Virus record (IMG/VR): IMGVR_UViG_3300035520_001860
Location: 1 to 64,000 of that record
Length of the DNA: 64,000 bases
Strand: one strand, 5' to 3'
Source of the DNA: a virus
Lineage: Duplodnaviria > Caudoviricetes
Shown one piece after another: positions 20,345 through 48,517 of the stretch. Within the stretch, counting starts at the first letter, position 1. Each line of letters starts with the position of its first letter. A program made the position numbers and the translations under genes. Below the pieces are notes generated by a model. That model was given only the letters and a program-made list of their open reading frames with translations. It was not told the origin of the DNA and did no database searches.

Positions 20345-21184
20345 ATGAAAAAGGTATTAATGACATTATTAACATGTGCAATGCTATTAACAATACCTGT
20401 GACATCTGTGAGTGCAGGATCACTCGATAACTTAATCAGTGGTTCAGAAACTACAACTGATTCAAGTGCAAGTGATAATTCTAACTCAAGTTCCAGTTCT
20501 TCATCTTCACAAGCATCAAGTAGCTATGTATCTGCTGATGAGTATATAGCAGACCTGCAGTCTGCAACTGATTTATCAAGTGTTGATGTAGCTGGCGCAG
20601 ATAAAGTTAATGAAGGAATAAAGAAAGTAGCAGCTTTCATTATAAGAATAATATCCTATGCATTAACAGCATTTTTAGTAGTAAGAGTACTGTTAGATTT
20701 ACTTTACATTGCAATTCCTTTTACAAGATCATTCTTGTCTAACGGCTATGCAGGAAACGCAGCAGCTGGCGGTGGTGGAATGGGACCACAAGGCGGCATG
20801 GGCATGGGAGGCATGGGCGGAATGTCCGGTGGCTTCGGTGGCATGGGCGGCATGGGAATGAACAGAGGTTACGGCATGCATGGTGGTATGGGAGGCATGG
20901 GAGGCAGCATGGGAATGCAGAGCCAAGCAGGTGCTAGTCCAGCTATGGGTCGTACACAATGGGTATCTTCAGCAGCACTAAATGCAGTAGCAGCTGAATC
21001 TCAGCCTGGTCCAGATGGAAAACCACAGAGTGCACTTAAGTACTATGCAAAAGACATGGCAGTTACACTTGTACTTGTACCTATTCTTTTAACATTAGCA
21101 ATTACTGGAGCACTTTCAGATTTAGGATTCTTACTTGGTGATGTTATTGCAAAAGGTATTGCTAGCATAGGGTCAATGATTTAG
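20345..21184 (+). CDS. Exported membrane protein with Gly-Met-rich loop (two-TM paralog family member 1)
   Basis: Sec signal peptide (VSA), Ser-rich linker, TM with DLLYIAIP, GGMGGM repeats and a second TM. Confidence 0.75.
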   Translation: MKKVLMTLLTCAMLLTIPVTSVSAGSLDNLISGSETTTDSSASDNSNSSSSSSSSQASSSYVSADEYIADLQSATDLSSVDVAGADKVNEGIKKVAAFIIRIISYALTAFLVVRVLLDLLYIAIPFTRSFLSNGYAGNAAAGGGGMGPQGGMGMGGMGGMSGGFGGMGGMGMNRGYGMHGGMGGMGGSMGMQSQAGASPAMGRTQWVSSAALNAVAAESQPGPDGKPQSALKYYAKDMAVTLVLVPILLTLAITGALSDLGFLLGDVIAKGIASIGSMI

Positions 21185-21211
21185 GGATATGAAAGTAACA
21201 GGAGAGCTTAA

Positions 21212-21523
21212 ATGAGTAGAACAAGCGACGTTTTAAAAAATAAAAACAAGGTAGAAAAAGCTAGAAAAGCTCGAAGAAAAAATGAGATAAATAGCTTAAG
21301 AGATAGTTCAGCATTTAAGGCAAAGCTATATGACGAGTTAAAACATATAGAAATAATATTCGAAGATGAACATGTGGATGCTGTTAAAATAGCAGTACCA
21401 GACAGGTCATTAGCACAGTTTAATGCAGCAATATACTCAGAAGATTTGGCTGGGTATGATATACAACAGGTAGCAGACCAGCCAAATGTATTCTACATAA
21501 GAAGAAGGTATATATCTTTCTAG
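21212..21523 (+). CDS. Hypothetical protein
   Basis: AGGAG RBS, basic N-terminal helix. Confidence 0.7.
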   Translation: MSRTSDVLKNKNKVEKARKARRKNEINSLRDSSAFKAKLYDELKHIEIIFEDEHVDAVKIAVPDRSLAQFNAAIYSEDLAGYDIQQVADQPNVFYIRRRYISF

Positions 21524-21563
21524 TCAATTAGATAGGAAAAATAATTTAGGAGGAAAAACATAA

Positions 21564-21968
21564 ATGAATGGAATCAGCATACAGGAAAGATATGATGACA
21601 TATCAGAAATATCAGGTTTATCTGAAGATATAATTAGGCGAGTACTAAAAGCATCCAGACAAAGTATGGTAAAGTCACTTAAAAAAGGTGAAAGAGCAAC
21701 ACTACCTGGTATAGTAACTGTGACTCCAGAACTGAAACACAGATATAAGATAGGTTTAGAGACAGAATTAGAAGAGTACATTAAACTTAAAGCAAGTCCT
21801 TCACCAGCATTAGGTACTGAGATGGAAAAATTAAATCAGTTTGTTAATCCAGAAGATGAAAGTACTAGACTAGCAAAAGAAGAGGCTAACATGAGTAGAT
21901 TGAATATAGGTGGAAGATATAACAACCAGAATAGAATCATAACAACTCAGATAAATGCACTCTTGTAA
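21564..21968 (+). CDS. HU/IHF-family DNA-binding protein (divergent)
   Basis: ISEISGLSEDIIRRVL...SLKKGERATLPGIVTV resembles the HU consensus IA..SGLSK...LKKGE.V.L.GFG.F. Confidence 0.7.
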   Translation: MNGISIQERYDDISEISGLSEDIIRRVLKASRQSMVKSLKKGERATLPGIVTVTPELKHRYKIGLETELEEYIKLKASPSPALGTEMEKLNQFVNPEDESTRLAKEEANMSRLNIGGRYNNQNRIITTQINALL

Positions 21969-21985
21969 TGTGGAGGTGCTTTTAA

Positions 21986-22597
21986 ATGACAGGACCTACA
22001 CATAAGCAATATTCAATTTGTTTCGCTTGCTTAACTATGATGTTGTTTTATAAGTTAGGTATAACAGAAATAAATTACTACTTAGCACTTATAATAGTGT
22101 TAATGACATCTAAAGTTGGAGCACTGTTTCCAGATTTAGATCATGACTGGCATAATATAGGTAACAAGACAGTGCCAAACAAAATAATAAACGTACTAAT
22201 TCATGCAACTGGGGGTAAGCATAGAAGTTGGCAAACACATAGTATTGATATATGTGCATGGTTCACAGTAGCAGCCTTCACTCTTCCTGGTTATTTAACA
22301 AATGAGGGTATCATTTCACAAGTAAACAGAGAAGTATTGAGCATATTATGGTTAGGGTTTGCATCTGGTTGGATAAGCCATTTGTTTAGTGATATGCTAA
22401 CAAGTGCAGGTGTTAGATTATTTTGTTTCATTAATAAGAAAATAAAACTTGTTCCGAAAAAGATAGGTAATTTATCATTTAACACTGGTCATGAATGGGA
22501 AGCATTCAATTACAAAGTAATAAAGATACTAAATATATTTTTAGGCATTATATGTCTAGCATATCCACTTATAATAGAGAGTGGGATATTAAACTAA
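21986..22597 (+). CDS. YdjM-like membrane-bound metal-dependent hydrolase
   Basis: MTGPTH, GALFPDLDH, HRSWQTHS and SHLFSDMLT..GV motifs. Confidence 0.85.
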   Translation: MTGPTHKQYSICFACLTMMLFYKLGITEINYYLALIIVLMTSKVGALFPDLDHDWHNIGNKTVPNKIINVLIHATGGKHRSWQTHSIDICAWFTVAAFTLPGYLTNEGIISQVNREVLSILWLGFASGWISHLFSDMLTSAGVRLFCFINKKIKLVPKKIGNLSFNTGHEWEAFNYKVIKILNIFLGIICLAYPLIIESGILN

Positions 22598-22630
22598 AAA
22601 ATTATTAACTCAATTTAAGGAGGTAACAAC

Positions 22631-23461
22631 ATGAAATCTATTAAATCAAAATTAGGTTTAATTATAGTAGCATTTTTAATTGCAGTATCAATGTTTACAA
22701 TGATCAATCCAGTCAAGGCTTACGCAGGAACATCAGCTCAAATTAAAGAAGTAATTGAGAAATATGCACCTGAAGCTAATAATAGTGACTATAGTGGTTG
22801 GCCTAGTAAACTTCAGCCATATTTTAGTACAGCTTATAACAAAGATGATGGATTTACTCAGGTAATAGAAGGTAAGATTAATGGTAATTCATACGAATAT
22901 TATTATAATCCAGATGAAGCATCAGCTATAATAGCAATAGCAGACGCATTAGATAAATCTACAGAAAAAACTGGCGAGGATATAGTGAATGACCTAGATG
23001 AGGTATATACACTCAAAGCCGATGTAAAATCAGCAGCTGGTGTGATGAATGGATTTACTAGCGTATTTCAAACATTCTTAGGATTTATAGTGACAATGCT
23101 AACAATAGGTATGACAGTATTTACAGCATTAGATCTTTGCTATATAGCATTTCCAGTATTTAGAGGAAAATGTGATGATGCAAAGGCAAATGGAACTAAG
23201 GGTGTAACCTCAACAGATAAAAAGACTGGTGCAACAAAGCTTACAATAATTTCTGAGGATGCACAGTTCTCTGTAGTATCAGCAGATATGGTAAATACAG
23301 GTAAAAGTCCATTTGTTATTTATTTCCAGAAGAGAGTAATATCATTCATTGTATTAGCAGTACTGATCTTTATATTATTAACTGGAAACATCAACATAAT
23401 TACAAACATTGGTGTTAAACTAGCATCCGGTATACTTGAGGTAATAAATAACACATTCTAA
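22631..23461 (+). CDS. Exported membrane protein (two-TM paralog family member 2)
   Basis: Signal peptide (AYA), DLCYIAFP TM and C-terminal YFQKR...LTG TM. Confidence 0.75.
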   Translation: MKSIKSKLGLIIVAFLIAVSMFTMINPVKAYAGTSAQIKEVIEKYAPEANNSDYSGWPSKLQPYFSTAYNKDDGFTQVIEGKINGNSYEYYYNPDEASAIIAIADALDKSTEKTGEDIVNDLDEVYTLKADVKSAAGVMNGFTSVFQTFLGFIVTMLTIGMTVFTALDLCYIAFPVFRGKCDDAKANGTKGVTSTDKKTGATKLTIISEDAQFSVVSADMVNTGKSPFVIYFQKRVISFIVLAVLIFILLTGNINIITNIGVKLASGILEVINNTF

Positions 23462-23488
23462 AAAAAGAACCAGGACAGGTGATACATC

Positions 23489-23998
23489 ATGAATACATAT
23501 TGGTTTGTAGTCATGACTGTAAACAAGATAACAAAAGAATTAAACGATAAGTTATCAGCTGACAGTGATATAGACTACATAGAACTAAAAGAATCATCAA
23601 GCATAATATCTAGAATAGGGAGCATGATATTAGGATTATTATCCTACATAATATTAATATTGTTTCCAATAATAGTAGGACTAGAGCTAATATACATATG
23701 TCTACCAACAATAAGAGATATGGAAGATGCTGCATTGATAAAACTAGAGTCTAAGGGTGTTGATAAAAGAATACTTGGAGTAGCATTTAGAGATGCAAAG
23801 AATGCAATAAAACAAGTTTACTGTAATAGTGAACTTATAGGTAGCACAAACGATATACTGTGGGCATACTTTAAAATAAAGATAAAGTCAATAATATTTG
23901 TATTCTTTGTACTTTCATTTGTAATTCAAGGCTGGTCAAAAATAGTAGATGTAGTGTGGAGTTATGTAGGTAATATTGTAGAAGCTATATTTGGCTGA
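23489..23998 (+). CDS. Membrane protein (two-TM paralog family member 3)
   Basis: ELIYICLP TM and YFKIK...QG TM; no signal peptide. Confidence 0.7.
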   Translation: MNTYWFVVMTVNKITKELNDKLSADSDIDYIELKESSSIISRIGSMILGLLSYIILILFPIIVGLELIYICLPTIRDMEDAALIKLESKGVDKRILGVAFRDAKNAIKQVYCNSELIGSTNDILWAYFKIKIKSIIFVFFVLSFVIQGWSKIVDVVWSYVGNIVEAIFG

Positions 23999-24060: not shown

Positions 24061-27054
24061 ATGAAAAGAAAATTAAAAACATTAATATTCTTAATAGCAA
24101 TGGTGATTGGAACATTATCAGTATCTGGATGTAGCAGTCCACTTACTGATTACATTATTTCAACATATCCACAGGCAGTAAGAGACAGAGAGCAAGCAAA
24201 TATAGATATAGCAACTAAACTTAGAAGTAAAGGGTTAATATCTGAACTTACTTATAATAACATAGTATCAAATATAGAACAAGCTACTAAAGATATATTA
24301 ACAGGTATTAGTGAAAAAACCACTGCAGATGGGAGTTCTGCAGCATCAGCTACAGCATCAAATTTTGCAAAGGTTGTATCTAACGTTAAATTATACATGC
24401 CTGACTATGTAGACATATTAGAGGAGCAGGATGATGGTACATATAAGTCTGTAAAAACATATACAAAAGGTACAGACTACCATAAGAGTATAGAAGAAGC
24501 TGATGGTGATTCATGTAATTTTCCAGAGGCTAACTCCAAATATAATTTTTATTATCTAAGTGACTCAGACGCTAATGACTATGTAACAATGTCTTCTTTT
24601 TTACTTGGAAACTACATATACGGTGATCAGCAGGGTCATCACCAAAAATGGTACACTACACAAAAAGGAGTAGACAATGGTAATTATAATAACACTACCG
24701 AGCACTGGTGTAAAAAATGTGGTACTGGTAACTGGCATAAATCAAACGAATGGCTAGAAACAGACACTGTAGATACAATAGATTTCTTTTCAAGTTGCAG
24801 TGAAAGCCTAACAGAAGAATTAAACAGCATGCTTGACCTAAATATATATGTACTAAACCCAACAAGCATTTTAAACAGTGGTAAATCAATAGATGAAGTG
24901 CTGGAAGACATATATGAAGCTAGACAAAGTGAAAATGAAGATGCTATAGAAAGCTTAATAAGTAAGTACTTTATAGATACAGGCAAGTCACTAACTGGTG
25001 AAATGTTATCAGTTGCAGATGGAGAAGACAGCACAAGAGATAGCAGTTCATTATGTATAATAGGAGATAGTACCTTCAATGAAAATGGTGGTGGACCAGG
25101 AAATGACTTGATAATAACACAGTCAATATGGACTGGTACACATACTGATGCTACGATGACAGACCTAGAAGTTGCAGCAGTAAGATTTCACGAATTTAAC
25201 GAAGAAGTAATAAATGAGATTCTTGACTTGGTAGAAGCTAATGACGGTACATATTATTTTGGAGCAAGTGGAGCATATTTATTAGAATACCCTGTATCAA
25301 TAATAGACACATTTGAATCAGATGCAAATGATCCTACTACAATCTATGGAAACTTAACAACAGATTCAGGTATAGGCATAAATATAGGTACAGGTTCAAT
25401 AGTGTATTATACTAAAAATAATGATGGAACATACTCACGTACAGGAAAGACTATTGAAAATGGAGACGGATACTTAACAACATCATTTACAACCAGTGAT
25501 ACTGAGGGTAAATCATCATTTGCACTAGGCGGAATGACCAAATATAAGCTAAGATTTTCAAATGGGCAGACATATACAACATATATACCACAAATAGTAT
25601 TAAGAGACTATTTGGAAGCCACATGGTCACCTGGTGTTATAGATGATGAAACACTAGTTGTTTATGGTAGAAAGATAAGATTTCAAACTGGAAGTACCTT
25701 TTGGGCAAACGACGAGTATCTAGATACTATTAATAATAAAGACATATACAGTTATAAATTGAAGTATAGTACATCTGGAAGTGACTATTGTGCATACTTT
25801 GTAGATGTAGACGGAAATACAGTAAGTACATCCAGTTATTTGTACATTTATGATATATGCGATATTACTAGTTTGGTTGACACTACACCTACTACCATAA
25901 CTTATGCAAGATATAATTCAAGTGCAAGTAATAAAACAAATATCGCAAACACGGTAGTAAGAGTAAAATACATGTCAGATTTTACTGGTAGCCAGATGGC
26001 TAATCAAGAATTATGGCTAAAGAGTGTGCTGCCAGATGACTGGGTGACAACTTTAAAAAATAATACAGGTGGGTGGAGATTAAATGATGGAGAAACAATT
26101 AGTGACTATGGGTACTGGAATACAATAATTTATTATCTAGAAGCTTGGATGAATGGAAAACATGCATCTACAAGTGATGCAGTCACAGGTGCAGAAGCAG
26201 GTTCTGGATCAGCATCTGGATGGGCAAAGTATTCAGTAACACACTTCCCAGAAGCAGCTATGACAGCACAAGAGACAGTTAAGGAATGCACAGCTGAAAA
26301 CAGCGACACACAGCCAAAACAAGATACACTAAGAGAATGTACAAAAGTTAATAAGATTAATGCAACATTGAAATTTCCTGGTGAATACATAGGAAAAATA
26401 GATATAGATAATGATGCATCTACAATAGAGCAATTCTACTGTGTAGCAACAACAAAAGGGTTGTTTGACTCAAATCTGTTTAGTAGTTGGATAAATAGTT
26501 CTACATCAAAAGAATCATTAGTATGGTGGAATAGCTATTTAGCAGAAAAAAGTTACAAATATACAATTGATATGGACGGATTGGAAGATTATCTTGAAAC
26601 AACATATAGCTATGAATTAAGTCAGACAGGTGCCATAATACTTGATTTGACAACAGTAGCAAAAATTCAAGAAATATTTGATAAAGACAGTGATGAAGAA
26701 AGAGCATCCAAACTTAAAACACTATTCATAGTTATAGGTATACTTTTAATAGCTTATTCAATGGCAATTATGCTTTGCTGGATAGTAGATACTCATATAG
26801 ATTTAGGATTTTCAGTATTAAATAAAGCAACATTTGGGCATTGGATAGCAGTAACATCTGAAGATGATATACCATCATATAGAACTGGTGAGCATACCTA
26901 TGTAACAGGCTCAAAAATGTTTATTAGATGTTTAATAATTATTGCTGTTGCAATAGTTTTAATCAGAGTAAATATACTTCAGATAGTATCTATGTTGATA
27001 ACCACATTTGGAAAAATAGGTGGATACATAGAAGGAGTAATGAGAGGCAGATAA
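24061..27054 (+). CDS. Large lipoprotein with C-terminal TM helices (conjugation cluster)
   Basis: Lipobox VSGC, about 860-aa extracellular region and two C-terminal TMs. Confidence 0.75.
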   Translation: MKRKLKTLIFLIAMVIGTLSVSGCSSPLTDYIISTYPQAVRDREQANIDIATKLRSKGLISELTYNNIVSNIEQATKDILTGISEKTTADGSSAASATASNFAKVVSNVKLYMPDYVDILEEQDDGTYKSVKTYTKGTDYHKSIEEADGDSCNFPEANSKYNFYYLSDSDANDYVTMSSFLLGNYIYGDQQGHHQKWYTTQKGVDNGNYNNTTEHWCKKCGTGNWHKSNEWLETDTVDTIDFFSSCSESLTEELNSMLDLNIYVLNPTSILNSGKSIDEVLEDIYEARQSENEDAIESLISKYFIDTGKSLTGEMLSVADGEDSTRDSSSLCIIGDSTFNENGGGPGNDLIITQSIWTGTHTDATMTDLEVAAVRFHEFNEEVINEILDLVEANDGTYYFGASGAYLLEYPVSIIDTFESDANDPTTIYGNLTTDSGIGINIGTGSIVYYTKNNDGTYSRTGKTIENGDGYLTTSFTTSDTEGKSSFALGGMTKYKLRFSNGQTYTTYIPQIVLRDYLEATWSPGVIDDETLVVYGRKIRFQTGSTFWANDEYLDTINNKDIYSYKLKYSTSGSDYCAYFVDVDGNTVSTSSYLYIYDICDITSLVDTTPTTITYARYNSSASNKTNIANTVVRVKYMSDFTGSQMANQELWLKSVLPDDWVTTLKNNTGGWRLNDGETISDYGYWNTIIYYLEAWMNGKHASTSDAVTGAEAGSGSASGWAKYSVTHFPEAAMTAQETVKECTAENSDTQPKQDTLRECTKVNKINATLKFPGEYIGKIDIDNDASTIEQFYCVATTKGLFDSNLFSSWINSSTSKESLVWWNSYLAEKSYKYTIDMDGLEDYLETTYSYELSQTGAIILDLTTVAKIQEIFDKDSDEERASKLKTLFIVIGILLIAYSMAIMLCWIVDTHIDLGFSVLNKATFGHWIAVTSEDDIPSYRTGEHTYVTGSKMFIRCLIIIAVAIVLIRVNILQIVSMLITTFGKIGGYIEGVMRGR

Positions 27055-32167: not shown

Positions 32168-32201
32168 AAGAGGCTGAGTTTTATACTTAGCCTCTTATTT
32201 T
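32168..32201 (+). terminator. Rho-independent terminator
   Basis: AAGAGGCTGAGT / ACTTAGCCTCTT followed by ATTTT. Confidence 0.75.
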
Positions 32202-36374: not shown

Positions 36375-37817
36375 ATGACAAAGTACTTACTAAACGATAC
36401 ATTTCATGGATATGAAAAACTCGATGTAAAGGATATAAGTAAGGCAGAGGAAGCAGGCAACTTATTTGTAATAATTATAGACAAGACCTGTGATGACTCT
36501 TTATCTGATTATTATATGCTTGTTAATTCAGCATTAAAGCATCAGAACAGAGTTATAGCAATATCTGTAATGGACGAAAATAGATTATTTAGATCATTAG
36601 CAGCACTTATGGTAACATATAATGATTATGACATCTACGAAGTAGCAGAAAAAGAAGCTATATCAGCAGAATACTTACTAAAATTAGAAAACAGAACGCC
36701 TGATTATAGTGAAGTTCAAACCTATATAGGTGGTGATGTGACAGCTTATTCAGATATGAATATGATTTTGTTTGGTATTCAAAGCTTAGCAGAAGAAGGA
36801 AATCCAGAAGCATTAAAGTCATTCCTTGAAGATCATATGTTAAGCATAGATAATTTAACAACATCACTTAACATGATGAAGAAAACATGCGATCTGTTTA
36901 ATTCTAATGAATTGGTTGGAGAAATAAACAATCTCAAGGAACATGAGAAGAGGCTGAATAAAAACTTAGCAGATAAGGAAACAGCATTAGCTGAAGCTAA
37001 ACATGACAGAGATGAAAATAAAGTAGCAGCTGATACTCTTAAAAGAGAGAATGAGAAGTTAAAAGAGAAAAATAAAGAGTTGCAGGATAACGGTGGAGGT
37101 TCTGGTGATGCAACAATAAGGTCATTTAGAACAGTAAATACTTCAATGTTAGCAGGTAATAGAGCTAAGATTGTTCTTTACTTTAAGGAAGTATCTTATG
37201 TAAGATATACAAATACACTCGTAAGTATTATATTTGAGCAGATAAAGTTAATGAAGTTAAAAACTAAACTATTAATATATGATACTGGCTCAGAGATGTA
37301 CAACATATACAAACCATTGAGAGTTGTGACTGGTTCTGATTATTTTTCTGAAAAGACAAGCTTAATTAAAAAAGTAGAGAAATTTGTTGTTGCTGAACCT
37401 GTACAAACTATTATAGAGGATATATTAAAGTCAGATGAGCAATTTGATGTAGTCATTATATATGACAGAATGCATACTAATCTTGATGTGGTTGCTGGTA
37501 ACTTAGTTACTAAGTTCTTCGTAATTAATTCAAGAGACGATTATGATCGTCTAAAAGATCAGTTAAAAATAAATGATACATCATACATTATCACAAATGC
37601 AGAGAGTTCCATAAATATGGGCGGAAAGAATAATGAGTGGGGACCTATAGGAGATAGAAATTTCATAGATATACCTACTATTCCAGAGTTTAAGAAAAAA
37701 GAATTAAACTCTAGCTCATTTGCAATTTCAAGGTATAAAAGACAGGCTGGAACATTAACACAAAAGCCTATCATTGATACTATAATTGAAAAAAGTAAAA
37801 TAAATACATTAAAATAA
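36375..37817 (+). CDS. Coiled-coil protein with a possible inactive MinD-like C-terminal domain
   Basis: Heptad-rich aa ~180-240; KLLIYDT and FDVVIIYD strands, but no P-loop. Confidence 0.55.
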   Translation: MTKYLLNDTFHGYEKLDVKDISKAEEAGNLFVIIIDKTCDDSLSDYYMLVNSALKHQNRVIAISVMDENRLFRSLAALMVTYNDYDIYEVAEKEAISAEYLLKLENRTPDYSEVQTYIGGDVTAYSDMNMILFGIQSLAEEGNPEALKSFLEDHMLSIDNLTTSLNMMKKTCDLFNSNELVGEINNLKEHEKRLNKNLADKETALAEAKHDRDENKVAADTLKRENEKLKEKNKELQDNGGGSGDATIRSFRTVNTSMLAGNRAKIVLYFKEVSYVRYTNTLVSIIFEQIKLMKLKTKLLIYDTGSEMYNIYKPLRVVTGSDYFSEKTSLIKKVEKFVVAEPVQTIIEDILKSDEQFDVVIIYDRMHTNLDVVAGNLVTKFFVINSRDDYDRLKDQLKINDTSYIITNAESSINMGGKNNEWGPIGDRNFIDIPTIPEFKKKELNSSSFAISRYKRQAGTLTQKPIIDTIIEKSKINTLK

Positions 37818-40026: not shown

Positions 40027-40040
40027 AACACATATAGCAG

Positions 40041-40076
40041 AAAGGGTACATCATTAAAATGTATCCTTTTGTTTTT
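40041..40076 (+). terminator. Rho-independent terminator
   Basis: AAAGGGTACAT / ATGTATCCTTT followed by TGTTTTT. Confidence 0.75.
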
Positions 40077-40398: not shown

Positions 40399-42753
40399 AT
40401 GGGATTATTAGACAACAAGATATCACAAGATGATTTGAATAGAGTTAATGATATAAGACATCATCCTGACCTCGAACCTGGTTTTGATGGTGGTGGAGAT
40501 GACTGGTTAAGCGGAGGTGACTCTGGCGGTGGGAGTGACTTTGATGGATTAGACAGTCTTTTTTCTGATGATCTAGGGTCCTCTGGTGGAAACGACATAT
40601 TTGGTGGAGGTTCATCAGGTGGAAGCTCTTTTGGTAGCGATAGTGGTACATTTGGCAGCAACAGTGGTACATTTGGCAGCAATAGGTTTAATAATGGAGG
40701 TACTTTTGGTAACAGTGGAAGTACCTTTGGTAGTAATGGATTCGGTGGTAATACATTTGGTAACAACGGATTCGGCGGTCTTGGTGGGCAAAACCAAATG
40801 CAGGGACAACAAGTACAACAGAAAGATACACTTGATAAAATGATGGATGCTGGGGCAGAGGCAGCTTCTGGCGTTGGGGCAATACTCGTTGAAATGGTAA
40901 AGTCATTCAAGGAAAGAAATGTAGATGACTATGGATACTTGAGTAAAAACCTAATTATTACTGGAGCAGCAATGCTAGGTATAAGTATCTTTGTAGCAAT
41001 TGCTGGAACAGTAGCTAGAGTAACAGCATTTCAATCTTTAGGAATAGAGTCAGCATTAAGTGGAGCACTGCTTGCAACAACGGGTATAGCAGGTTTAGGT
41101 ATAGCAGCTTTCATTTTAACTAAAATGGGAGATCAAGAACTAAATAATAACAACATTTCAAATATACCTGATGAACCAGCTGGTGATGACAATTTTACAG
41201 ATACATTAGATGATAACTCTGGAGATATAATGGATGACTTATTTGGTGATGACTTTGATGATTTATTTGGTGATGATACAACATCAAATATAGCAGCTGA
41301 ACCTGAGGAACCAGAACCAGAAGCAGAATCATTAGAGGTAACACCAATAAATTATAAGGATGAACTTGAAAAAATAAATGAAAACACATATTTATCTAGA
41401 CAAACATTAGTTGAAACATTCTGTAATATGTTCACAACAAATACTGTTGGTTTTGAAAAGAAAACAGAGATTAGTCCAGATTCAACAGAATGGAATCAGC
41501 TTGAGGCAATTTGTCTAAAAGCATTAGCAAACTTAGCAAACTGTACACTTGAGGAAGTAAACTCAAATTTGGAATCAGCAGACAAAACATTATTTGCTTA
41601 TGAACTCAGACTGAAAAGAATAAACAAAGTAAAACAGCCAGATGCTTTAGCAAAAGAAATAGAAATCTATGTAAGAGATGATGATAGTCCAGACGCAACA
41701 GTTACAGCTACAATCTCTGGTGATTTCTACAACATAATAATTGCAACAGGAGAAAATTATGTTGTAACATTTGGTGATGTATTTAAGCTTGATTATTGCA
41801 AGAATTTCTTCTTGAGTGATAAGAATAAGCTACCTATGATAACAGGTATAACAGAGTTAGGTAAAGTAATAGTCGATGATGCAAAGAACTTCGATACTAT
41901 GTTAGTAGCAGGTAAGCCTAGGTCAGGTAAATCATGGTATGTATTAAGTATACTCATGAGTTTAATTCTGTTTAATACACCAGAAGATGTTCAGTTTATC
42001 ATTGTGGATCCAAAAGAGTCAAACCTGTTTAAGACATTGAGTCTATTTCCCCATGTGTGTGGACTACATAATGATAAGCAAATCATTAAAATATTAGATG
42101 ATATCATTGAAGTAGAAGCACCAAGACGTAAGAAATTATTATCAGACAACAGATGCGATGATATATGGGCACTTAGAAAGAAAGGAATTAGACTTCCAGT
42201 GCTTTATTTAGTTATAGACGAGTATATAACTGTAATAAACAATTTAGACAAAGATGCTGCCAAAGAATTTGATGGTAAGATACAGACTCTAATTAGTCAG
42301 CTACCTTCCCAAGGAATCAGGCTCTTGTTCGTACCTCACAGAGCAACTGGGGTTGTAAATAAAACCAATAGAACAATGCTCCAATTTACGGCGGCCGTCA
42401 GAGCTGATATAGACGATGTAATTGATACACTCGGTGTTAAAAAGTGGGATAGAGCACTTACAAAACCCGGTGATATAGCTATAAAGACATCATCAACTCC
42501 TAAAGCAACATATGTTAAGGGTGCAGCATTAACTCCTAGTGACGAAGAGAATACACAATTTATGGAAACTGCAGCAGCAGCCTTCTATAAGATGGGTGTA
42601 GACATACCAGATATGAGTTCAATGAGAATAGCATGTAACAGAGACGAGGAATATGTTCAAAGTGAACTTGGAGCAACTGGAACAAACAGAGTGCAGTATG
42701 ATGCATCTGCAATAATAAATGATCTAGACAATATAGATTTAGACAACTTATAA
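40399..42753 (+). CDS. FtsK/SpoIIIE-family ATPase (TcpA/Orf21-type coupling protein or DNA translocase)
   Basis: Two TMs; LVAGKPRSGKS, IVDPK, LVIDEY, GIRL; Gly-rich N-terminus. Confidence 0.85.
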   Translation: MGLLDNKISQDDLNRVNDIRHHPDLEPGFDGGGDDWLSGGDSGGGSDFDGLDSLFSDDLGSSGGNDIFGGGSSGGSSFGSDSGTFGSNSGTFGSNRFNNGGTFGNSGSTFGSNGFGGNTFGNNGFGGLGGQNQMQGQQVQQKDTLDKMMDAGAEAASGVGAILVEMVKSFKERNVDDYGYLSKNLIITGAAMLGISIFVAIAGTVARVTAFQSLGIESALSGALLATTGIAGLGIAAFILTKMGDQELNNNNISNIPDEPAGDDNFTDTLDDNSGDIMDDLFGDDFDDLFGDDTTSNIAAEPEEPEPEAESLEVTPINYKDELEKINENTYLSRQTLVETFCNMFTTNTVGFEKKTEISPDSTEWNQLEAICLKALANLANCTLEEVNSNLESADKTLFAYELRLKRINKVKQPDALAKEIEIYVRDDDSPDATVTATISGDFYNIIIATGENYVVTFGDVFKLDYCKNFFLSDKNKLPMITGITELGKVIVDDAKNFDTMLVAGKPRSGKSWYVLSILMSLILFNTPEDVQFIIVDPKESNLFKTLSLFPHVCGLHNDKQIIKILDDIIEVEAPRRKKLLSDNRCDDIWALRKKGIRLPVLYLVIDEYITVINNLDKDAAKEFDGKIQTLISQLPSQGIRLLFVPHRATGVVNKTNRTMLQFTAAVRADIDDVIDTLGVKKWDRALTKPGDIAIKTSSTPKATYVKGAALTPSDEENTQFMETAAAAFYKMGVDIPDMSSMRIACNRDEEYVQSELGATGTNRVQYDASAIINDLDNIDLDNL
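40630..40780 (+). repeat. Coding short tandem repeats (GTFGSN/GGFG)
   Basis: AGTGGTACATTTGGCAGC at a 21-bp period, followed by degenerate copies. Confidence 0.7.
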
Positions 42754-42784: not shown

Positions 42785-44767
42785 ATGGGAGCACCTAGTA
42801 TTCCAAAGGAAAACATTACAGGTTTAGTTGTAAAGGGATGGATAGTAGATAGGTATGACACAAAAGGTAAATGGGTATGCAAGTGTGAAAAGTGTGGAAA
42901 AGAAGAAATATTCAGAGCATATCATTTAAAAGAAGCACGAGTTAAAATTTGTAATCATTCAAATAATAAGGCTACACATACATTTAAAGATGATTTGACA
43001 GGAAGAACCTTTGGTGAACTAAAAGTAATAGGATTTGATATAGTGAATGGTGTGTGGAAGTGTAAATGTTCATGTGGAAAAGAAGTATACCATACTACAT
43101 ATCAATTAGTAACAAGGGGTGTGAAAACATGTGGACACAGCAGTGGTGTACTAAAAGACCTTAGAGGAAAGAAATTTGGAGAATTAATACCAATTGAATA
43201 CCTAGGTGATAGAACCTGGAAATGTGAGTGTTCTTGTGGAAAAATTACAAACGTTAGAACAACTGACCTTGTGAGTGGAAACACACAATCATGTGGTCAT
43301 CTTAAAACCGGAGCACCTGTAATAGACTTAACAAATCAGCAATTTGGAAACTGGACAGCTTTAAAATATGTTGGAAACAGCTATTGGCAATGTAAGTGTA
43401 CCTGTGGTAATATAGAAAATGTTCATTCATATACATTAAGAAATGGAACATCAACAAGGTGTTCATCACCATTGCATAGAGTAACAGATATAAAAGGAAG
43501 ACAATTTGGTGAGCTACATGTTGAAGAATATACAGGCAATGGATTCTGGAAATGTAAGTGTTCCTGTGGTAAAACAAAAAACATACTTGGAGTCAACTTA
43601 AGAAATGGAAGTACTAGATCATGTGGATGTATGACAGACAAATTATTAAGACAAACATTATTTAGTAGATACAATGAGATATGTCCATCAAGAGTAGATA
43701 ATGCAAGAAGCACACAACAGATAGAAATTTTACATACAAAAGAATTGTTTAATGCACTCCTAGTAGAATACACAATAAGTTATGGAAAACCAGATGCATA
43801 TGCATTAGCAGATATATTAGGCGTTAGTAGATATACAATAGTCAACATGGCTAATAAGTATGATTTACTAGATAAAATAAAAATATACTATAATAGTAGT
43901 AAAGGAGAAAACCAGGTAGCAAACTTTGTAAGAAACATATACAACGGAGAAGTAATACAAAACACTAAGAAAATACTAGATAATGGCAAGGAACTAGATA
44001 TATACATCCCAGATAAACACATCGCAATAGAATTTAATGGAACCTACTGGCATTCCACAATCTACAAAGATAAGTATTATCATCAACAGAAAACATTAGA
44101 TTGTCATAGGCAAGGAATACGATTAATCCATATATTTGAATATGAATGGAATGATGCAGACACACAGCAGAAAATAAAGAATCACTTAGAATTACTATTA
44201 AGTAACAATATACAAACCATTGGAGCACGAAATACAGAAGTAAAAGAAATAGATAAGCAAACAGCAAAAGAGTTTATAGATAAGTACCATCTTCAGAAGT
44301 ATAGTGAGTCATCGGTTAATATAGGATGCTTTTACAACAACGAACTGATTGGAGCATTAACATTAGGTCATCCAAGATTCAACAGTGAGTATCAGTATGA
44401 AATCATAAGATTTTGTTGGAAAGATAGAGTAAAAGTAACAGGTGGCCTAGAGAAATTATTTTCATACTTTATAAAAAATTATCATCCAAAGTCAATAATG
44501 GCATACTCAGATATATCAAAGTTTACTGGCAATTGTTATACAAAGATAGATTTCAAACCAATAAAACAAAATACAATCACAGAACCAAACTACGTATGGG
44601 TTGATATAGAAAGCAACCAAGTACTATCAAGATACCAAACACAAAAGAAGAAGCTAATAGCTAATAATTTAGGTACAGAAGAACAAACAGAAGATGAGAT
44701 AATGGATAATAATGGATTTTTCAAGATATACAACTCAGGTAATATTAAGATGCAATGGGAATACTAA
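42785..44767 (+). CDS. Zn-repeat / HTH / PD-(D/E)XK nuclease / Mom-like GNAT protein, paralog 2 (5 repeats)
   Basis: Five DL.G..FG...W.C.CSCG...SCGH repeats; HTH ALADILGVSRYTI; ELDIYIPDKHIAIEFNGTYWHS; C-terminal GNAT-like domain. Confidence 0.82.
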   Translation: MGAPSIPKENITGLVVKGWIVDRYDTKGKWVCKCEKCGKEEIFRAYHLKEARVKICNHSNNKATHTFKDDLTGRTFGELKVIGFDIVNGVWKCKCSCGKEVYHTTYQLVTRGVKTCGHSSGVLKDLRGKKFGELIPIEYLGDRTWKCECSCGKITNVRTTDLVSGNTQSCGHLKTGAPVIDLTNQQFGNWTALKYVGNSYWQCKCTCGNIENVHSYTLRNGTSTRCSSPLHRVTDIKGRQFGELHVEEYTGNGFWKCKCSCGKTKNILGVNLRNGSTRSCGCMTDKLLRQTLFSRYNEICPSRVDNARSTQQIEILHTKELFNALLVEYTISYGKPDAYALADILGVSRYTIVNMANKYDLLDKIKIYYNSSKGENQVANFVRNIYNGEVIQNTKKILDNGKELDIYIPDKHIAIEFNGTYWHSTIYKDKYYHQQKTLDCHRQGIRLIHIFEYEWNDADTQQKIKNHLELLLSNNIQTIGARNTEVKEIDKQTAKEFIDKYHLQKYSESSVNIGCFYNNELIGALTLGHPRFNSEYQYEIIRFCWKDRVKVTGGLEKLFSYFIKNYHPKSIMAYSDISKFTGNCYTKIDFKPIKQNTITEPNYVWVDIESNQVLSRYQTQKKKLIANNLGTEEQTEDEIMDNNGFFKIYNSGNIKMQWEY

Positions 44768-44789: not shown

Positions 44790-46235
44790 TTGAAGATTGA
44801 TTTTCTAGGGAATAAATCATCTAATAGCAACATTAGTTTGGGCACTGAATCATTGGACATTTCGGGATTTGACTTTGATGAACTAGATGACAGCAGCCAA
44901 ATTAATATAATAGAAGATGAGACGAACAAGCCTAATAAGCCTAAAAAGACAAAAAGCAGCATAATAAATAAGTTTTCTCTGCTTCAAAATACTCCAGAAA
45001 TACAGTCTGATGAAGTTATAGATTATTCACAAAATACAGTGGATGCAACAGATTTTGATTTTAGCTTTGATGAGACAGATAAAGAGATTCAAGAAAACAT
45101 TATAAATAACGATGAAGAGGCAGCTGAGGCTAATGCACTTATGCAAAAGATCCTAGCTGAGGATACTATATCAGAACAATCAACAAATGAAGATGACATA
45201 GTTGATATGGAATCAGATGATGGGATAGACTTTGATGAAGAACAAAGCTTAGAGGATGAATTTGACGGTATTGAAATAGATACAGATGATACTATTTCAG
45301 AACAATCAACAAATGATAATGACATTGAAATAGATGATTCAGATTTTGATATAGAAGACGATAGTATTGAAAATGAAGATGATGGAATGAGTTCTATAGA
45401 TGATTTAGATTTTGAGGATGATACATCTGATGAAGAAAGTGAATCAGATTATGATCCAATGTCATCAATAGATAATCTTGATCTTGACTTCGAAGATGAA
45501 GATGAATCAGAAGAGACAAATAATGAGACACAAGTACAAGTATCAAACAATACTGAGGATGATGAAGACTCATTCACACTGGAAGATTTGGACAACATAG
45601 AGGAACCCAGTAATAAAACACACAGTACTATTTCACAACAAATTACAAATAGTAATAACAAAAGTAATGAAATTACAATAGATTTAGAAGATGATTCAGA
45701 CCTAGAAAATGAACTGAATGATTTACAGAATGAGCTCATAATACAAGACAGTGCTAATAAGATAGGGACAACACCAACAAGTACTAATATAAATCAAAGT
45801 ACAAAACAACAGAACACTGATAGCAAACTGAAACATGAGATAGAATCAAATAATGAAAAAGTTTTAGAAATGCAACAAAAGATTGCATTAATGGAGCAAG
45901 AGTTGCAGAGGCTTAAAGGTGGTGGGGCGAAAGAAACTGCATCAAATATAGAGAATAATGTTAATATTAATGATGAAGTTGATAAGATTGACGACCTTAT
46001 TAATGGCAATAAGCCTAAAAAAGAAAACGATATTGGAAAATATGATAGATATGCACTAATGTCTACTGAAGCATTGTACAAAGAAGTTAAACAGTACATG
46101 AAAAAGATGGGAGTAAGTAAGAGACCCATTGATCAGTCAGCATTAAATAACAAGTTTGGAGAGACCAATATCAAAAAGTTAATACAAAAAAGCTATTTAA
46201 TAAAAGCAGGTAAAGGAGTAACAACAGGACGATGA
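44790..46235 (+). CDS. Acidic low-complexity protein with coiled coil and small basic C-terminal (wHTH-like) domain
   Basis: About 250 aa of D/E-rich sequence with DTISEQSTN repeats; C-terminal LYKEVKQYM...KFGETNIKKLIQKSYLI. Confidence 0.7.
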   Translation: MKIDFLGNKSSNSNISLGTESLDISGFDFDELDDSSQINIIEDETNKPNKPKKTKSSIINKFSLLQNTPEIQSDEVIDYSQNTVDATDFDFSFDETDKEIQENIINNDEEAAEANALMQKILAEDTISEQSTNEDDIVDMESDDGIDFDEEQSLEDEFDGIEIDTDDTISEQSTNDNDIEIDDSDFDIEDDSIENEDDGMSSIDDLDFEDDTSDEESESDYDPMSSIDNLDLDFEDEDESEETNNETQVQVSNNTEDDEDSFTLEDLDNIEEPSNKTHSTISQQITNSNNKSNEITIDLEDDSDLENELNDLQNELIIQDSANKIGTTPTSTNINQSTKQQNTDSKLKHEIESNNEKVLEMQQKIALMEQELQRLKGGGAKETASNIENNVNINDEVDKIDDLINGNKPKKENDIGKYDRYALMSTEALYKEVKQYMKKMGVSKRPIDQSALNNKFGETNIKKLIQKSYLIKAGKGVTTGR

Positions 46236-48517
46236 AAAAGAAGAACATTACAAAAGTAATAGCACTACTAAGTGCATCATCTATGATGTTTACTGGATGT
46301 GGTTCATTTATAAGTGAAGATGTTGCATCATATCCGTTAGCATCATCACTTACATCAGCAGAACTTATTGATTACTATGCAGAGGCATTAGATTATGACT
46401 CTGTTGTAACAAGAAACGTTACTGTGCATGAGACAACATATGTAACAAAAGATATTCAAGGTGAAAAAGCTACAAAACTTGAAGAGTTGTATAAGGCTTG
46501 TGAAGATATATTAGGACAAAGTGAATATGAGCCTACTGAAGATTCATTAAAACTTGTATCTGAGGATACATTCTACTATTTAAAAGGTGTGCTTGACAAT
46601 GAAGTATTATCCAACGGTACTATTAAGAATATAACTGGGGCACTTGGATATTATTTTGTTGATGTTGAATACGATTTAAGTGCAAAAACAGCTGGAACAT
46701 TTACTAATTGGGCACAGTTAGTAGGTTTAAACGGAGCAATTAGTTATAATGCATACTTAGATGAATACTCATTAAACAGTTCATATTCACAAGCAATTTG
46801 TCAGGAAGTAAATGAGTACTTTACTGAAAACAAGGTAAATCAGATATTAACATATGATACAACATCATACGAATTGAATATAGCTGAGGGAGATCCTTCA
46901 ACATACAATGCAACTAATAATACAACATCTACTGTCACTGATACAGAATATGATGATGAAACATCAGGAAGTTCAGGTGGAATTACCATTTTAAATGAGC
47001 CTGGTGACGAAGATGAAACAGATACAGATATTTCAGATATTGAAACAACATCACTTGATGATATAGTAGATGATGATGAAGATACAGTAGCATCTGATGA
47101 TGAAGAGGTTGTAGAAGATGATGAAGATATAATATCTACTGATAATACAACTACAGTAGTTAGTACTGGTGTAGCGGCTACAACAAGCACTGTAATGTCA
47201 ACCTTATCAAGTAGTAGTGGAGCATATACAATAGTAACACCTACTGAAAGAAGAAACTGGTTAGACGTTGGGTTATTAAATAAGTTAGTAGGTTCATCTA
47301 TTGAAAGCAAGGCAACAATGCCAGAACTTTCTCAAGTATATAATATACCTGAAGCAGAAGGTACAATATCAGGATATGGTATTGCAAACTCCGGTTCAAA
47401 CGGATTAAAGATATTTGGATATGACAGAGATAAGTTATCTGGAACAGCAACTTTAAGATATGTGTTTAAAGATGATAGTACAGGTACTGGAGATATATTA
47501 GGAACAAACATTTATGTTACAGAGGAACAGATAACAAACGGTGTTACAGTATCTTCAAGTACACCTTATATAGCAGAGTTCCTTGAGAGTGAATTTGAAC
47601 AGATTGTTGAAAGATCTGACAGAGTTCAAGTTAACTGTGACTTAGCTGGTGCATTATCAAGTGACTTGTATGAAGATATTGGTATTGGGCTACTTATTGG
47701 ATTCAAAGATAAAAATACAAATACAACAAAGTATATGTCAAAAATACGTCAGGTTTTAGGTAGTGATAAATCTAATAATGCTTACTTATTAGAGGTTGAA
47801 ACAACTACAATTGATGGACCAAAGGATATAGATATTTATGGAACATATAAAGAAATTTATTATATTGTAGTTCAGCAGCAGGATACAGAATTTAAGATTA
47901 TTGATATGCTGAGAACATCAAGAACAATGACTCATGAGCCTGACATTGATCCTGATAGCAATATTACAAAGAGATTAATTGCATTGAACCTTGCAGGTGA
48001 AATCAGTGATGATAATAAGACATCAATCAAGAGTTTAATGAGTGCACTGTATACAGCTGGAACAAACAGAATACTGTACGGACCTAAAGATATAGAAGCA
48101 AACGGTGAGACAATAACCATTGAAAAAGGTATGTATGACTGCTTCAGTGATGATACATCAATATTATCAAGTGATGATAAGGAATACATAAACTCTTCTA
48201 TTAGAAGTATATTAACAGGTATACATGGTACTGATACATCAGCATATTACTCTGGAGATGTAGTAGAGTGGATAGGCGGCTATGATAACCAAGCAGAGTT
48301 CGTAACACAAGAAACAGTTACTTACAGTGGATATGATGACTACTACGAAATGACAGTTTACTACTTAGTATCCATTGAGAATGATGAATGGGTAATTGAT
48401 GAAAGAACTGTTATAGATGGTGGACTTGTAGATGGAAGTGGAAATAGTCTTGAAACAGAAGATACAAGCTCAGATGTTTCAACAGAAACAACTGAATCAA
48501 CAGAAGTAACAGAATAA
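46232..48517 (+). CDS. Large lipoprotein, candidate VirB8/TcpC-like with NTF2-type domains
   Basis: Lipobox FTGC; two domain-terminal strand pairs (YIVVQQQDTEFKIID, YYLVSIENDEWVIDE) typical of NTF2-like folds; ATGA overlap with the upstream gene. Confidence 0.55.
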   Translation: MKKKNITKVIALLSASSMMFTGCGSFISEDVASYPLASSLTSAELIDYYAEALDYDSVVTRNVTVHETTYVTKDIQGEKATKLEELYKACEDILGQSEYEPTEDSLKLVSEDTFYYLKGVLDNEVLSNGTIKNITGALGYYFVDVEYDLSAKTAGTFTNWAQLVGLNGAISYNAYLDEYSLNSSYSQAICQEVNEYFTENKVNQILTYDTTSYELNIAEGDPSTYNATNNTTSTVTDTEYDDETSGSSGGITILNEPGDEDETDTDISDIETTSLDDIVDDDEDTVASDDEEVVEDDEDIISTDNTTTVVSTGVAATTSTVMSTLSSSSGAYTIVTPTERRNWLDVGLLNKLVGSSIESKATMPELSQVYNIPEAEGTISGYGIANSGSNGLKIFGYDRDKLSGTATLRYVFKDDSTGTGDILGTNIYVTEEQITNGVTVSSSTPYIAEFLESEFEQIVERSDRVQVNCDLAGALSSDLYEDIGIGLLIGFKDKNTNTTKYMSKIRQVLGSDKSNNAYLLEVETTTIDGPKDIDIYGTYKEIYYIVVQQQDTEFKIIDMLRTSRTMTHEPDIDPDSNITKRLIALNLAGEISDDNKTSIKSLMSALYTAGTNRILYGPKDIEANGETITIEKGMYDCFSDDTSILSSDDKEYINSSIRSILTGIHGTDTSAYYSGDVVEWIGGYDNQAEFVTQETVTYSGYDDYYEMTVYYLVSIENDEWVIDERTVIDGGLVDGSGNSLETEDTSSDVSTETTESTEVTE

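Follow-up and report, generated by a model that had tools for sequence, protein, structure and literature searches.

A probable pXO16-type conjugation apparatus on a giant plasmid-like element catalogued as a virus

This study examined the first 64 kb (the window) of the 133,586-bp IMG/VR record IMGVR_UViG_3300035520_001860, hereafter G000, with a focus on the gene cluster at positions 20345–48517. The data make it probable that this cluster encodes a conjugative DNA-transfer apparatus resembling a type IV secretion system (T4SS) of the pXO16 "tip" type, which would serve a Gram-positive host and is carried by a giant, plasmid-like element, at least 250 kb long and coded on one strand, with a distant relationship to the Bacillus thuringiensis plasmid pXO16. 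We infer this function in the lineage of the window from homology, synteny, conservation, and models. The category itself is already known, as the cluster is a divergent variant of the described tip system of pXO16. New here are the spread through gut metagenomes, the components of 997, 938, 481, and 761 amino acids (aa), the apparent link between the proteins TcpI and YdjM, and a 430-aa protein predicted to dock the VirB4-class ATPase.

The cluster consists of 16 closely packed open reading frames (ORFs), all on the + strand, whose products measure, in order, 279, 103, 134, 203, 276, 169, 997, 1690, 430, 938, 480, 732, 784, 660, 481, and 761 aa. The comparison included three related IMG/VR records, namely G001 (268 kb, rated 89% complete), G002 (249,770 bp, rated 100% complete and collinear with G000 throughout), and G003 (88 kb). 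All 16 ORFs were intact and in the same order in G001–G003 wherever the fetched DNA covers them, and the ratio of nonsynonymous to synonymous polymorphism (pN/pS) against G001 was 0.17–0.63 in the nine genes tested, with synonymous divergence (dS) saturated.

An earlier reading of the window made from its letters only (the sequence-only reading) had named VirB4 and an FtsK-type ATPase as the core of the cluster, and both are present. The 732-aa protein (37828–40026) carries the Walker A motif AGTGGGKS and is tightly constrained (pN/pS 0.19). Searched alone, it gave weak Pfam matches (DUF87 3.2e-6, P-loop_TraG 3.7e-5) and a chance match only in the PDB. An exhaustive phmmer search of 1.84 billion proteins retrieved 311 representative clusters at E≤0.001, and this small count indicates that the family is small and separate. 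In a 56-member alignment of the family, the Gly-Lys of Walker A and the Walker-B-like motif VWEEFQR were invariant or nearly so; AAA_10 matched 15 of the 56 members and did not match the window protein. The profile built from the 56 sequences found the C-terminal domain of Thermoanaerobacter VirB4 in the PDB (4AG5, 1.3e-18), followed by DptH (8.5e-5), a coupling protein (1.1e-4), and HerA (2e-3). For the AlphaFold2 (AF2) model of the protein, with a predicted local distance difference test score (pLDDT) of 85.9, the 12 best Foldseek matches were all VirB4 chains, with both domains covered. Among these matches, full-length TrwK of R388 was found at E 1e-15 to 1e-11 over ~630–680 aligned columns, and 4AG6 at a template-modeling (TM) score of 0.68 on the target; the ESM Atlas gave a TraC-like neighbor at 0.86, which serves as a lead only. 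These data provide a sound basis for assigning the 732-aa protein to the VirB4 class, a hallmark of T4SSs that transfer single-stranded DNA.

The second ATPase (784 aa, 40399–42753) is of the FtsK/SpoIIIE type, with a Gly-rich N-terminus, hydrophobic segments at about residues 181–240, and one motor domain (PF01580, 6.3e-15) in which one Walker A (GKPRSGKS) and one Walker B (LVIDE) are intact. Its PDB matches were EccC and FtsK. We propose for it the role of a coupling protein or DNA pump in the apparatus.

The closest characterized relative of the locus was found on pXO16. In a tblastn comparison of the VirB4-like protein with 72,556 plasmids, 24 records matched, all 24 of them typed as "non-mobilizable", and the best matches were B. 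thuringiensis plasmids of ~350 kb (31% identity over 91%, E 1e-81). The reference used for further comparison was pBTHD789-1 (NC_018516) from Bacillus thuringiensis sv. israelensis, which is the sequence of pXO16 according to the accessible text of a FEMS review (PMC6199540). The VirB4-like protein matched its pXO16 orthologue at 1.8e-96 (phmmer), and the FtsK-like protein shared 30% identity with the pXO16 FtsK over the motor domain (8.9e-35). The genes that match in order are the clamp loader, the membrane paralogues, YdjM, the giant protein, the 430/445-aa protein, the VirB4-like and FtsK genes, and the SNF2 helicase; within the locus, 7 of the 16 ORFs matched pXO16 at phmmer E<1e-4. Two of the genes in this order flank the locus on its own strand. 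At the upstream edge, a DnaX-like clamp-loader subunit (18695–20119; TIGR02397, 1.2e-73) shares 28% identity (6e-50) with the AAA ATPase directly upstream of the pXO16 locus, and downstream an SNF2-family helicase (50836–52467), recognized in the Pfam and PHROGs scans, shares 32% identity (4.5e-77) with the pXO16 helicase. Farther downstream, the genes for GyrB and GyrA, a DnaB-like helicase gene, and a ParB/HNH gene are also syntenic, so that 12 collinear gene pairs are spread over ~64 kb of G000 and ~86 kb of pXO16.

In both pXO16 and G000, nearly all genes lie on one strand, the locus stands amid replication genes, and no relaxase is recognizable. The two differ in that protein identity is only 19–32%; that the window locus has extra proteins of 997, 938 (MinD/ParA-like), 481, and 761 aa and a homing endonuclease, whereas the pXO16 locus has a 710-aa NlpC/P60-like protein and several small ORFs missing in the window; and that the window derives from gut metagenomes, possibly from Lachnospiraceae, whereas pXO16 belongs to Bacillus.

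The tip locus of pXO16 is described, in the accessible text of a review (PMC9673590), as a novel T4SS of 25 kb and 16 coding sequences with two ATPases and the wall hydrolase TipB, for which the relaxase and oriT are unidentified; the same text states that the conjugation genes of pXO16 were unrecognizable before tip was delimited. The annotation of ON016099 contains no tip gene names. The excerpted FEMS review places the tip region "inside the replication region" of pXO16 (PMC6199540). The region collinear with the window, at about 202–228 kb of NC_018516, is most likely this tip locus, since every pXO16 record contains just one VirB4-like and one FtsK site, both amid replication genes. Concerning the substrate, the same excerpts report, citing Makart 2018, that the DNA transferred by pXO16 is single-stranded, and they add that plasmids mobilized by it need their single-strand origin intact for this to work well (PMC6199540). 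Both reviews, as far as their text was accessible, also state that it moves oriT-less plasmids and chromosomal markers (PMC9673590; PMC6199540).

The cluster contains a candidate for the membrane anchor of the VirB4-class ATPase, namely the 430-aa protein (32223–33515), which has two transmembrane (TM) helices and an alpha/beta domain and matches pXO16 X16210 at 2.9e-14. Its 284 relatives lack Pfam domains and occur on contigs of up to 720 kb, and it matches a 375-aa ORF of a B. subtilis plasmid at 9.4e-10. The profile of its family found nothing in the PDB. Its AF2 model is of moderate quality (pLDDT 62, with a core of 70–85), and Foldseek returned nothing at 1e-3; its ten best matches were all TrwK/VirB4 chains, at 6.6e-3 to 3e-2. 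With the VIA aligner, the longest match of the alpha/beta domain was to TrwK residues 19–214, i.e., the VirB4 N-terminal domain (Z 7.3, root-mean-square deviation 3.8 Å, 161 residues), and helical-hairpin matches dominated a VIA-wide fold search with the model.

A complex model of VirB4-like residues 60–732 with 430-aa residues 30–350 scored 0.75, and the best of three controls scored 0.00. The mark set for this score is reached by 116 of 157 solved complexes versus 2 of 215 mismatched pairs, counts that hold roughly for the alignments of our own used here. At least 98% of the contacts agreed between the runs, the partner pLDDT was at least 74, and the interface was modeled as strand pairing between VirB4-like residues 134–144 and 430-aa residues 169–176. 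The pass may partly reflect likeness to VirB4 dimers, because VirB4–VirB4 dimers have been solved (7O43). The model thus supports the prediction that the 430-aa protein binds the VirB4-like ATPase and may serve as its membrane dock.

Large and small envelope proteins surround these components. The sequence-only reading had described ORFs of 997 aa (24061–27054), 1690 aa (27076–32148), and 761 aa (46232–48517), and all three have these sizes on the + strand. The 1690-aa polytopic giant has seven hydrophobic segments, including a cluster at residues 1439–1555, and is homologous over residues 1213–1563 to an 1834-aa protein of pXO16 (3e-28). Its orthologues occur in G001–G003 and in the related locus L012, it has no Pfam or PDB match, and it is a candidate for a channel or wall-spanning component. 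The 997-aa protein (pN/pS 0.63) has an N-terminal hydrophobic segment, a large middle part, and two C-terminal TM segments; its orthologues in G001–G003 are most conserved at the C-terminus, and no Pfam, PHROG, or PDB match or pXO16 counterpart was found for it. The 761-aa protein (pN/pS 0.48; orthologues at 41–56% identity) has an N-terminal hydrophobic segment, indicating a secreted or anchored protein, and belongs to no family; PDB searches with it, as with the 1690- and 997-aa proteins, gave no match.

The three smaller membrane proteins had been called paralogous two-TM proteins. The paralogy held as a weak relation, with reciprocal phmmer matches at 3e-5 to 8e-4 against a small database, and "two-TM" proved approximate, as a Kyte–Doolittle scan showed two to three hydrophobic segments in each. 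The 279-aa protein (20345–21184; segments 4–22, 95–113, and 239–257; orthologues in G001–G003) is weakly paralogous to the other two and matches pXO16 X4795 at 6.6e-5. The 276-aa protein (22631–23461) also has hydrophobic segments and matches pXO16 X4795 (9.2e-8), X2264 (3.2e-7), and X5793 (9.7e-6). The 169-aa protein (23489–23998; segments 54–72 and 123–153) matches the other paralogues weakly (7e-4 and 8e-4).

Among the accessory genes, the predicted YdjM-like hydrolase was borne out: the 203-aa membrane protein at 21986–22597 (pN/pS 0.17) matches the metal-dependent hydrolase family PF04307 at 2e-14, above the Pfam cut-off, and pXO16 X4075 at 1.6e-7. TcpI, encoded by the last of the tcp genes of plasmid pCW3, also belongs to PF04307 (3.5e-27) and matches the window ORF at 1.1e-5. 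A YdjM hydrolase therefore recurs in pCW3, in pXO16, and in the window locus, and by sequence TcpI appears to be the pCW3 counterpart of the window protein. The 134-aa protein named as HU (21564–21968) stays below the Pfam cut-off in the window (HU-HIG 7.6e-5, Bac_DNA_binding 1.3e-3), while its G001 orthologue passes (24.0 bits vs. 22.4) and the pXO16 ORF at this position matches Bac_DNA_binding at 5.6e-4; we refer to it as HU-like.

A "TadZ/MinD-like ATPase" had also been proposed. The 938-aa protein (33534–36350) does belong to the MinD/ParA superfamily, with a conserved N-terminal part of ~150 aa, a long, acidic, Asn-rich linker of low conservation, and a C-terminal domain that matches AAA_31 at 4e-8; the TadZ part of the name gained no support. 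At E≤0.01, the PDB relatives of its profile were CapB BY-kinases (1.5e-8), then Soj and MinD/FlhG, none of them named TadZ, and TIGR03815 (CpaE homologue) reached 26.9 bits against a cut-off of 154. In five of six orthologues, its P-loop (residues ~679–687, window 35550–35580) has the sequence GCGGCGTST, which contains two Cys and lacks Lys, and the most distant orthologue (L012) retains GGPASGKS. This suggests that nucleotide hydrolysis has been lost or changed in the clade of the window. The 480-aa protein that follows (36375–37817) appears cytoplasmic, with no TM segment, a coiled-coil middle, and weak Pfam matches of coiled-coil type. Its structural neighbors in the Atlas were ParA/MinD/CbiA at TM scores of 0.29–0.40, so that a C-terminal ParA-like fold is a lead only, and hhalign found no profile relation to the 938-aa family (probability 0.2%). 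Its positional counterpart in pXO16, X18669 (412 aa), matched at 0.025 only.

Based on these components, the apparatus would work as follows. The 430-aa two-TM protein would tether the VirB4-class ATPase to the membrane, and the role that TcpA plays in pCW3, that of coupling protein or DNA pump, would fall to the membrane-anchored FtsK-type ATPase. The polytopic proteins of 1690 and 997 aa, together with the three small membrane paralogues, may form the channel and the wall-spanning part, with the YdjM/TcpI-like hydrolase and the HU-like protein as putative accessory factors. The lysine-less 938-aa protein and the 480-aa protein would be cytoplasmic scaffolds or positioning factors and not motors. 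DNA processing would depend on an unrecognized nuclease or on none, a situation resembling that of pXO16, which has no known relaxase or oriT.

The cluster contains three further ORFs. The 103-aa protein (21212–21523) is small, conserved (63–83% identity in G001–G003; pN/pS 0.18), and of no family, and pXO16 has at its position a 92-aa ORF without a sequence match. The 481-aa protein (44790–46235) is well conserved in its C-terminal ~60 aa alone and, like the 761-aa protein, had no match in pXO16; it had none in Pfam, and a Pfam scan of 41 orthologues of the unassigned proteins revealed no new family. The 660-aa ORF (42785–44767; phrog_3339, 1.8e-88) is a homing endonuclease, that is, a selfish insert and no part of the machine. 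A copy adjoins the FtsK gene in G001 and G002 as well, and G000 has a five-member family of such homing-endonuclease-like genes (phrog_3339/559) with a Mom-like C-terminal region (window 16327–17361, 42785–44767, 49113–50867, and 61782–63374; G000:74503–76395).

Gaps of more than 70 bp in the cluster occur only 3' of the 1690-, 732-, and 761-aa genes, and each of the three contains a terminator-like hairpin with a 12-pair stem on the + strand: 32168–32196 behind the giant gene, 40040–40070 behind the VirB4-like gene, and 48539–48567 downstream of the cluster end. The hairpins come from a consensus scan alone, and only their placement is informative, because their overall number was not above that in shuffled sequence. 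The placement is suggestive of three transcription units and of a true downstream boundary at 48517. A promoter scan was uninformative, with fewer sites than in the shuffles. Upstream of the cluster, a 270-aa ORF (14185–14997) combines a single strong TM segment with a match to T4SS_pilin that is very weak (PF18895, E 0.0073); it is kept in G002 at 47% identity and may be a pilin-like part outside 20345–48517.

Relaxases and wall hydrolases had been reported as missing from the window, and the Pfam scan of its ORFs agreed, with no relaxase and no CHAP, NlpC, or lysozyme domain at E≤0.01. The search for MOB families across the replicon, which had been proposed as a check, gave the same result: in a six-frame search of G000–G003, including the record rated 100% complete, the six families Relaxase, Mob_Pre, Rep_trans, MobA_MobL, TrwC, and TraI_2 (PF03432, PF01076, PF02486, PF03389, PF08751, and PF07514) were found in none of the four records, and neither was the tyrosine recombinase family PF00589, while the positive controls matched. 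A hydrolase does occur outside the window: about 54 kb downstream of the locus, G000:102181–105222 encodes a 1013-aa protein in which an N-terminal hydrophobic segment is combined with Phage_lysozyme2 (4.7e-14) and NlpC/P60 (1e-9) domains; at 1e-5, G002 contains no orthologue of it. Behind its gene, up to G000:108559, the record encodes small proteins whose N-termini carry hydrophobic segments, and a 299-aa SH3_3 protein that weakly matches an ATLF-like metalloprotease. It is possible that the 1013-aa protein is a remote wall hydrolase of the transfer machine.

The carrier also resembles a plasmid more than a phage. G000 is rated 59% complete by CheckV, its window has a guanine-plus-cytosine (GC) content of ~31% with a steady positive GC skew, and 116 of 128 non-nested ORFs in G000 lie on the + strand. 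Contigs carrying close relatives of the VirB4-like protein (62–94% identity) reach 600 kb. Among 209 ORFs scanned against PHROGs (28 and 63 of G000, 118 of G002), none belonged to a head, packaging, portal, terminase, or real tail family, and no virion family appeared when G000 and the 1–135 kb part of G002 were scanned with Pfam, a sequence-based result that very divergent virion genes could escape. Three of the four records G000–G003 bear the provirus label, yet none of the four has a tyrosine recombinase match or a detectable virion gene. Instead, the carrier genes comprise replication and repair functions, many homing endonucleases, and translation-related functions. G000–G003 are thus probably plasmid-like replicons misclassified as viruses, and by gene content the carrier family looks like a group of plasmid-like elements of at least 250 kb in the style of pXO16.

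Several other gene groups were noticed on these carriers. The stretches G000:86135–98445 and G002:73000–116000 encode IF3, SmpB, and a ClpB-like ATPase, to which G002 adds RtcB, MetK, a TilS-like PP-loop protein, and YqeY; the same stretches contain TROVE/Ro-like, Sir2, GGDEF, and MscS proteins and several HipA-like kinase domains. At ~25000–51000, G002 (L014–L016) has a second surface module. It comprises two ATPases, one of T2SSE type (PilB/VirB11 class; 668 aa) and one AAA_31/ParA-like (376 aa), as well as consecutive ORFs of 149–196 aa and proteins of 1840 and 1821 aa (the latter with Big_9/cadherin), with SLH-domain proteins nearby. By loose analogy to the separate "agr" region of pXO16, it may be a pilus or aggregation module.

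Another system close to the cluster is that of pCW3 and Tn916 (MPF_FA), which likewise combines a VirB4-class ATPase with an FtsK/SpoIIIE-type ATPase in place of VirD4 and has the YdjM-family protein TcpI; the FEMS review, in its accessible text, likens the pXO16 system to pCW3 (PMC6199540). As the sequence-only reading had stated, that class is the more compact one (~12 kb for the pCW3 tcp locus vs. 28 kb for the window locus), and a one-to-one mapping of the window components onto it failed. By phmmer, TcpC, TcpD, TcpE, TcpF, TcpH, and TcpM had no convincing counterpart in the region or the record, and PF12642 (TcpC) and PF12648 (TcpE) had no match at E≤0.01 in the window ORFs or in 41 orthologues. 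Plain phmmer with TcpF and TcpA missed both window ATPases, while TcpA matched the pXO16 FtsK at 1.4e-8; TcpG matched only the remote 1013-aa protein (2.9e-4), with no TcpG-like hydrolase in the locus. Judged by sequence, the cluster would work like the Gram-positive systems with FtsK and VirB4 and falls outside MPF_FA. The claim of a distinct, enlarged T4SS subtype thus stood in part: the system is divergent, Gram-positive, enlarged, and not MPF_FA, but it has a precedent, being collinear with the VirB4-like/FtsK region of pXO16.

A third lineage was found on uncharacterized plasmids (e.g., NZ_CP032858) of B. subtilis (~136–155 kb) and of B. velezensis/amyloliquefaciens (~215 kb), which have a VirB4-like/FtsK cluster. 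On a B. subtilis plasmid of ~140 kb, the order is a 430-like gene (9.4e-10), a MinD-like AAA ATPase at the position of the 938-aa gene (9.5e-5), an unmatched ORF, the VirB4-like gene (7.3e-46), an M23 peptidase, and, farther on, FtsK (5.4e-13). These plasmids differ from the window in the M23 peptidase after the VirB4-like gene and in an FtsK of 1127 aa, and no giant or YdjM is annotated in the stretch viewed. In L037 (NZ_CP032858: 30862–44480), from B. subtilis plasmids of fermented soybean food, the cluster is also accompanied by a ParB-like gene. The 430-like, VirB4-like, and FtsK-like genes are common to the window, pXO16, and B. subtilis lineages; the giant membrane protein and YdjM are common to the window and pXO16; and the MinD-like ATPase occurs in the window and the B. 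subtilis plasmids, with none detectable in pXO16. These B. subtilis plasmids, "non-mobilizable" by MOB-suite, may be conjugative by a system of the window type.

The Hodor megaplasmids of the human gut were considered as a further relative. According to the accessible text of a 2026 preprint (PMC12934698), they are very large, conjugative, and filed in virus databases; they lack TerL and carry a divergent T4SS as well as a large module of surface proteins; they have 44.6–47.1% GC, Rep_3, sortases, VirD4, and a MOBH-like HD relaxase, and neither pXO16 nor FtsK is mentioned in that text. Membership of the window element in this family was rejected on the basis of its ~31% GC, its FtsK-type ATPase, and the lack of a PF07514 match.

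Several points weigh against a tip-type apparatus. The weakest link is the equation of the collinear pXO16 region with the tip locus, which was drawn from the accessible text of two reviews. Significant pXO16 homologues exist for 7 of the 16 ORFs alone, and the proteins of 997, 938, 660, 481, and 761 aa have no match there. No homologue of VirB6, VirB8, TcpC, TcpE, or TcpH was detected by Pfam or phmmer. No relaxase of the six families was found in G000–G003 (oriT was not searched for), the locus at 20345–48517 has no wall hydrolase, and the 710-aa ORF of pXO16, itself a weak NlpC/P60 match (7.3e-4), has no homologue in it. The resemblance of the 430-aa protein to the VirB4 N-terminal domain comes from a model of pLDDT 62 and from matches below the threshold, and hhalign found no sequence relation between its family and the VirB4-like family (probability 0.2%). 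In addition, IMG/VR classes G000 as a provirus, and the host is uncertain: a search of genome contigs for related loci returned two short contigs of one Lachnospiraceae metagenome-assembled genome (MAG) only, and among 401 sampled genomes of its family, the VirB4-like gene at E≤1e-30 was found in one, the same MAG.

Other explanations were weighed against these data. The possible transfer of double-stranded DNA raised by the sequence-only reading would have the FtsK-type protein pump DNA as TraB-type proteins do in Streptomyces, while the VirB4-like and envelope proteins only build the junction. This would explain the missing relaxase (six families, none of four records) and suits the intact, membrane-anchored FtsK-type motor, as well as the movement of oriT-less plasmids and chromosomal markers by pXO16, which both reviews record in their accessible text (PMC9673590; PMC6199540). 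It is contradicted by the report, in the excerpted FEMS review, that pXO16 transfers single-stranded DNA and that the single-strand origin matters (PMC6199540). The tight constraint on an ATPase of the class typical of single-stranded transfer also speaks against it. We regard this explanation as unlikely, and by analogy with pXO16 the transfer of single-stranded DNA appears more likely. The cluster could, in turn, be an ordinary MPF_FA system with its standard relaxase and hydrolase encoded at another site of the element or by the host, given that VirB4, the FtsK-type ATPase, and the YdjM/TcpI-like gene occur as in pCW3, that the lysozyme and NlpC/P60 protein at G000:102181–105222 is matched by TcpG at 2.9e-4, and that AAA_10 is found in 15 of the 56 VirB4-like family members. 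This appears quite improbable when set against the lack of convincing counterparts of TcpC, TcpD, TcpE, TcpF, TcpH, and TcpM and of PF12642 and PF12648 matches, the failure of TcpA to match the window FtsK, a 100%-complete record with neither relaxase nor tyrosine recombinase, a remote hydrolase that G002 does not share at 1e-5, and a VirB4-like family that is small and separate (311 clusters).

Two further explanations dispense with conjugation. A non-conjugative envelope machine, either for protein secretion (like the type VII secretion system, T7SS, or an effector T4SS) or for the assembly of a surface structure, is suggested by EssC/EccC as the best named matches of the FtsK-like protein, by the many large secreted or membrane proteins of unassigned function, and by MinD/ParA-like proteins, which are typical of pilus and secretion loci. 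We consider it improbable, as the FtsK-like protein has one FtsK domain and one Walker A and reaches 51.6 bits with TIGR03928 against a cut-off of 778, no ESX/Ess accessory family appeared in the Pfam scans, and a VirB4-class ATPase is no part of the T7SS; moreover, the homologous region of pXO16 is reported to be needed for conjugation in the accessible text of the reviews. Finally, the cluster might belong to a huge phage, e.g., as an apparatus for DNA delivery or packaging, in line with the provirus class in IMG/VR, the Atlas neighbors labeled Viruses, the phage-like replication genes, and the many homing endonucleases. The absence of head, packaging, portal, terminase, and real tail families from the 209 ORFs scanned with PHROGs and from the Pfam scans, together with the absence of an integrase, makes this very improbable. 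Its closest characterized relative is, besides, a conjugative plasmid from which phage plaques were not isolated, according to the excerpted FEMS review (PMC6199540), and megaplasmids misfiled in virus databases are known from the preprint text cited above (PMC12934698).

As a tip-type apparatus, the cluster bears on pXO16 itself, which has so far been treated as a one-off that conjugates very efficiently with hardly any recognizable parts and no relaxase and moves "non-mobilizable" plasmids as well as chromosomal DNA. The full-text literature search, whose coverage excluded subscription journals and supplements, uncovered no paper describing relatives of pXO16 in bacteria other than the B. 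cereus group. Our data indicate that hundreds of metagenome contigs, as well as megaplasmids of the B. subtilis group, carry distant relatives of the transfer region and of much of the backbone of pXO16. The set of three lineages separates a conserved core, made up of the 430-like, VirB4-like, and FtsK-like proteins, the giant membrane protein, and YdjM, with a MinD-like ATPase in two of the three, from lineage-specific extras. It yields testable hypotheses for unassigned parts, among them VirB4 docking by the 430-aa protein and the correspondence of YdjM to TcpI. It also provides a warning that pXO16-like elements are being filed as huge phages. A bolder and rather doubtful extension is that these elements form a widespread, unrecognized family of conjugative megaplasmids of at least 250 kb in anaerobic gut Bacillota, whose tip-type machine needs no dedicated relaxase or oriT and moves any co-resident DNA, with the 430-aa protein replacing VirB3/VirB8 as the dock of VirB4. 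If true, this would amount to a general DNA-donation system in gut communities, including mob-less plasmids and chromosomal segments. If relaxase-independence is shared with pXO16, part of the gene flow among gut Firmicutes would be invisible to MOB-based surveys; all 24 matching plasmids were typed as "non-mobilizable".

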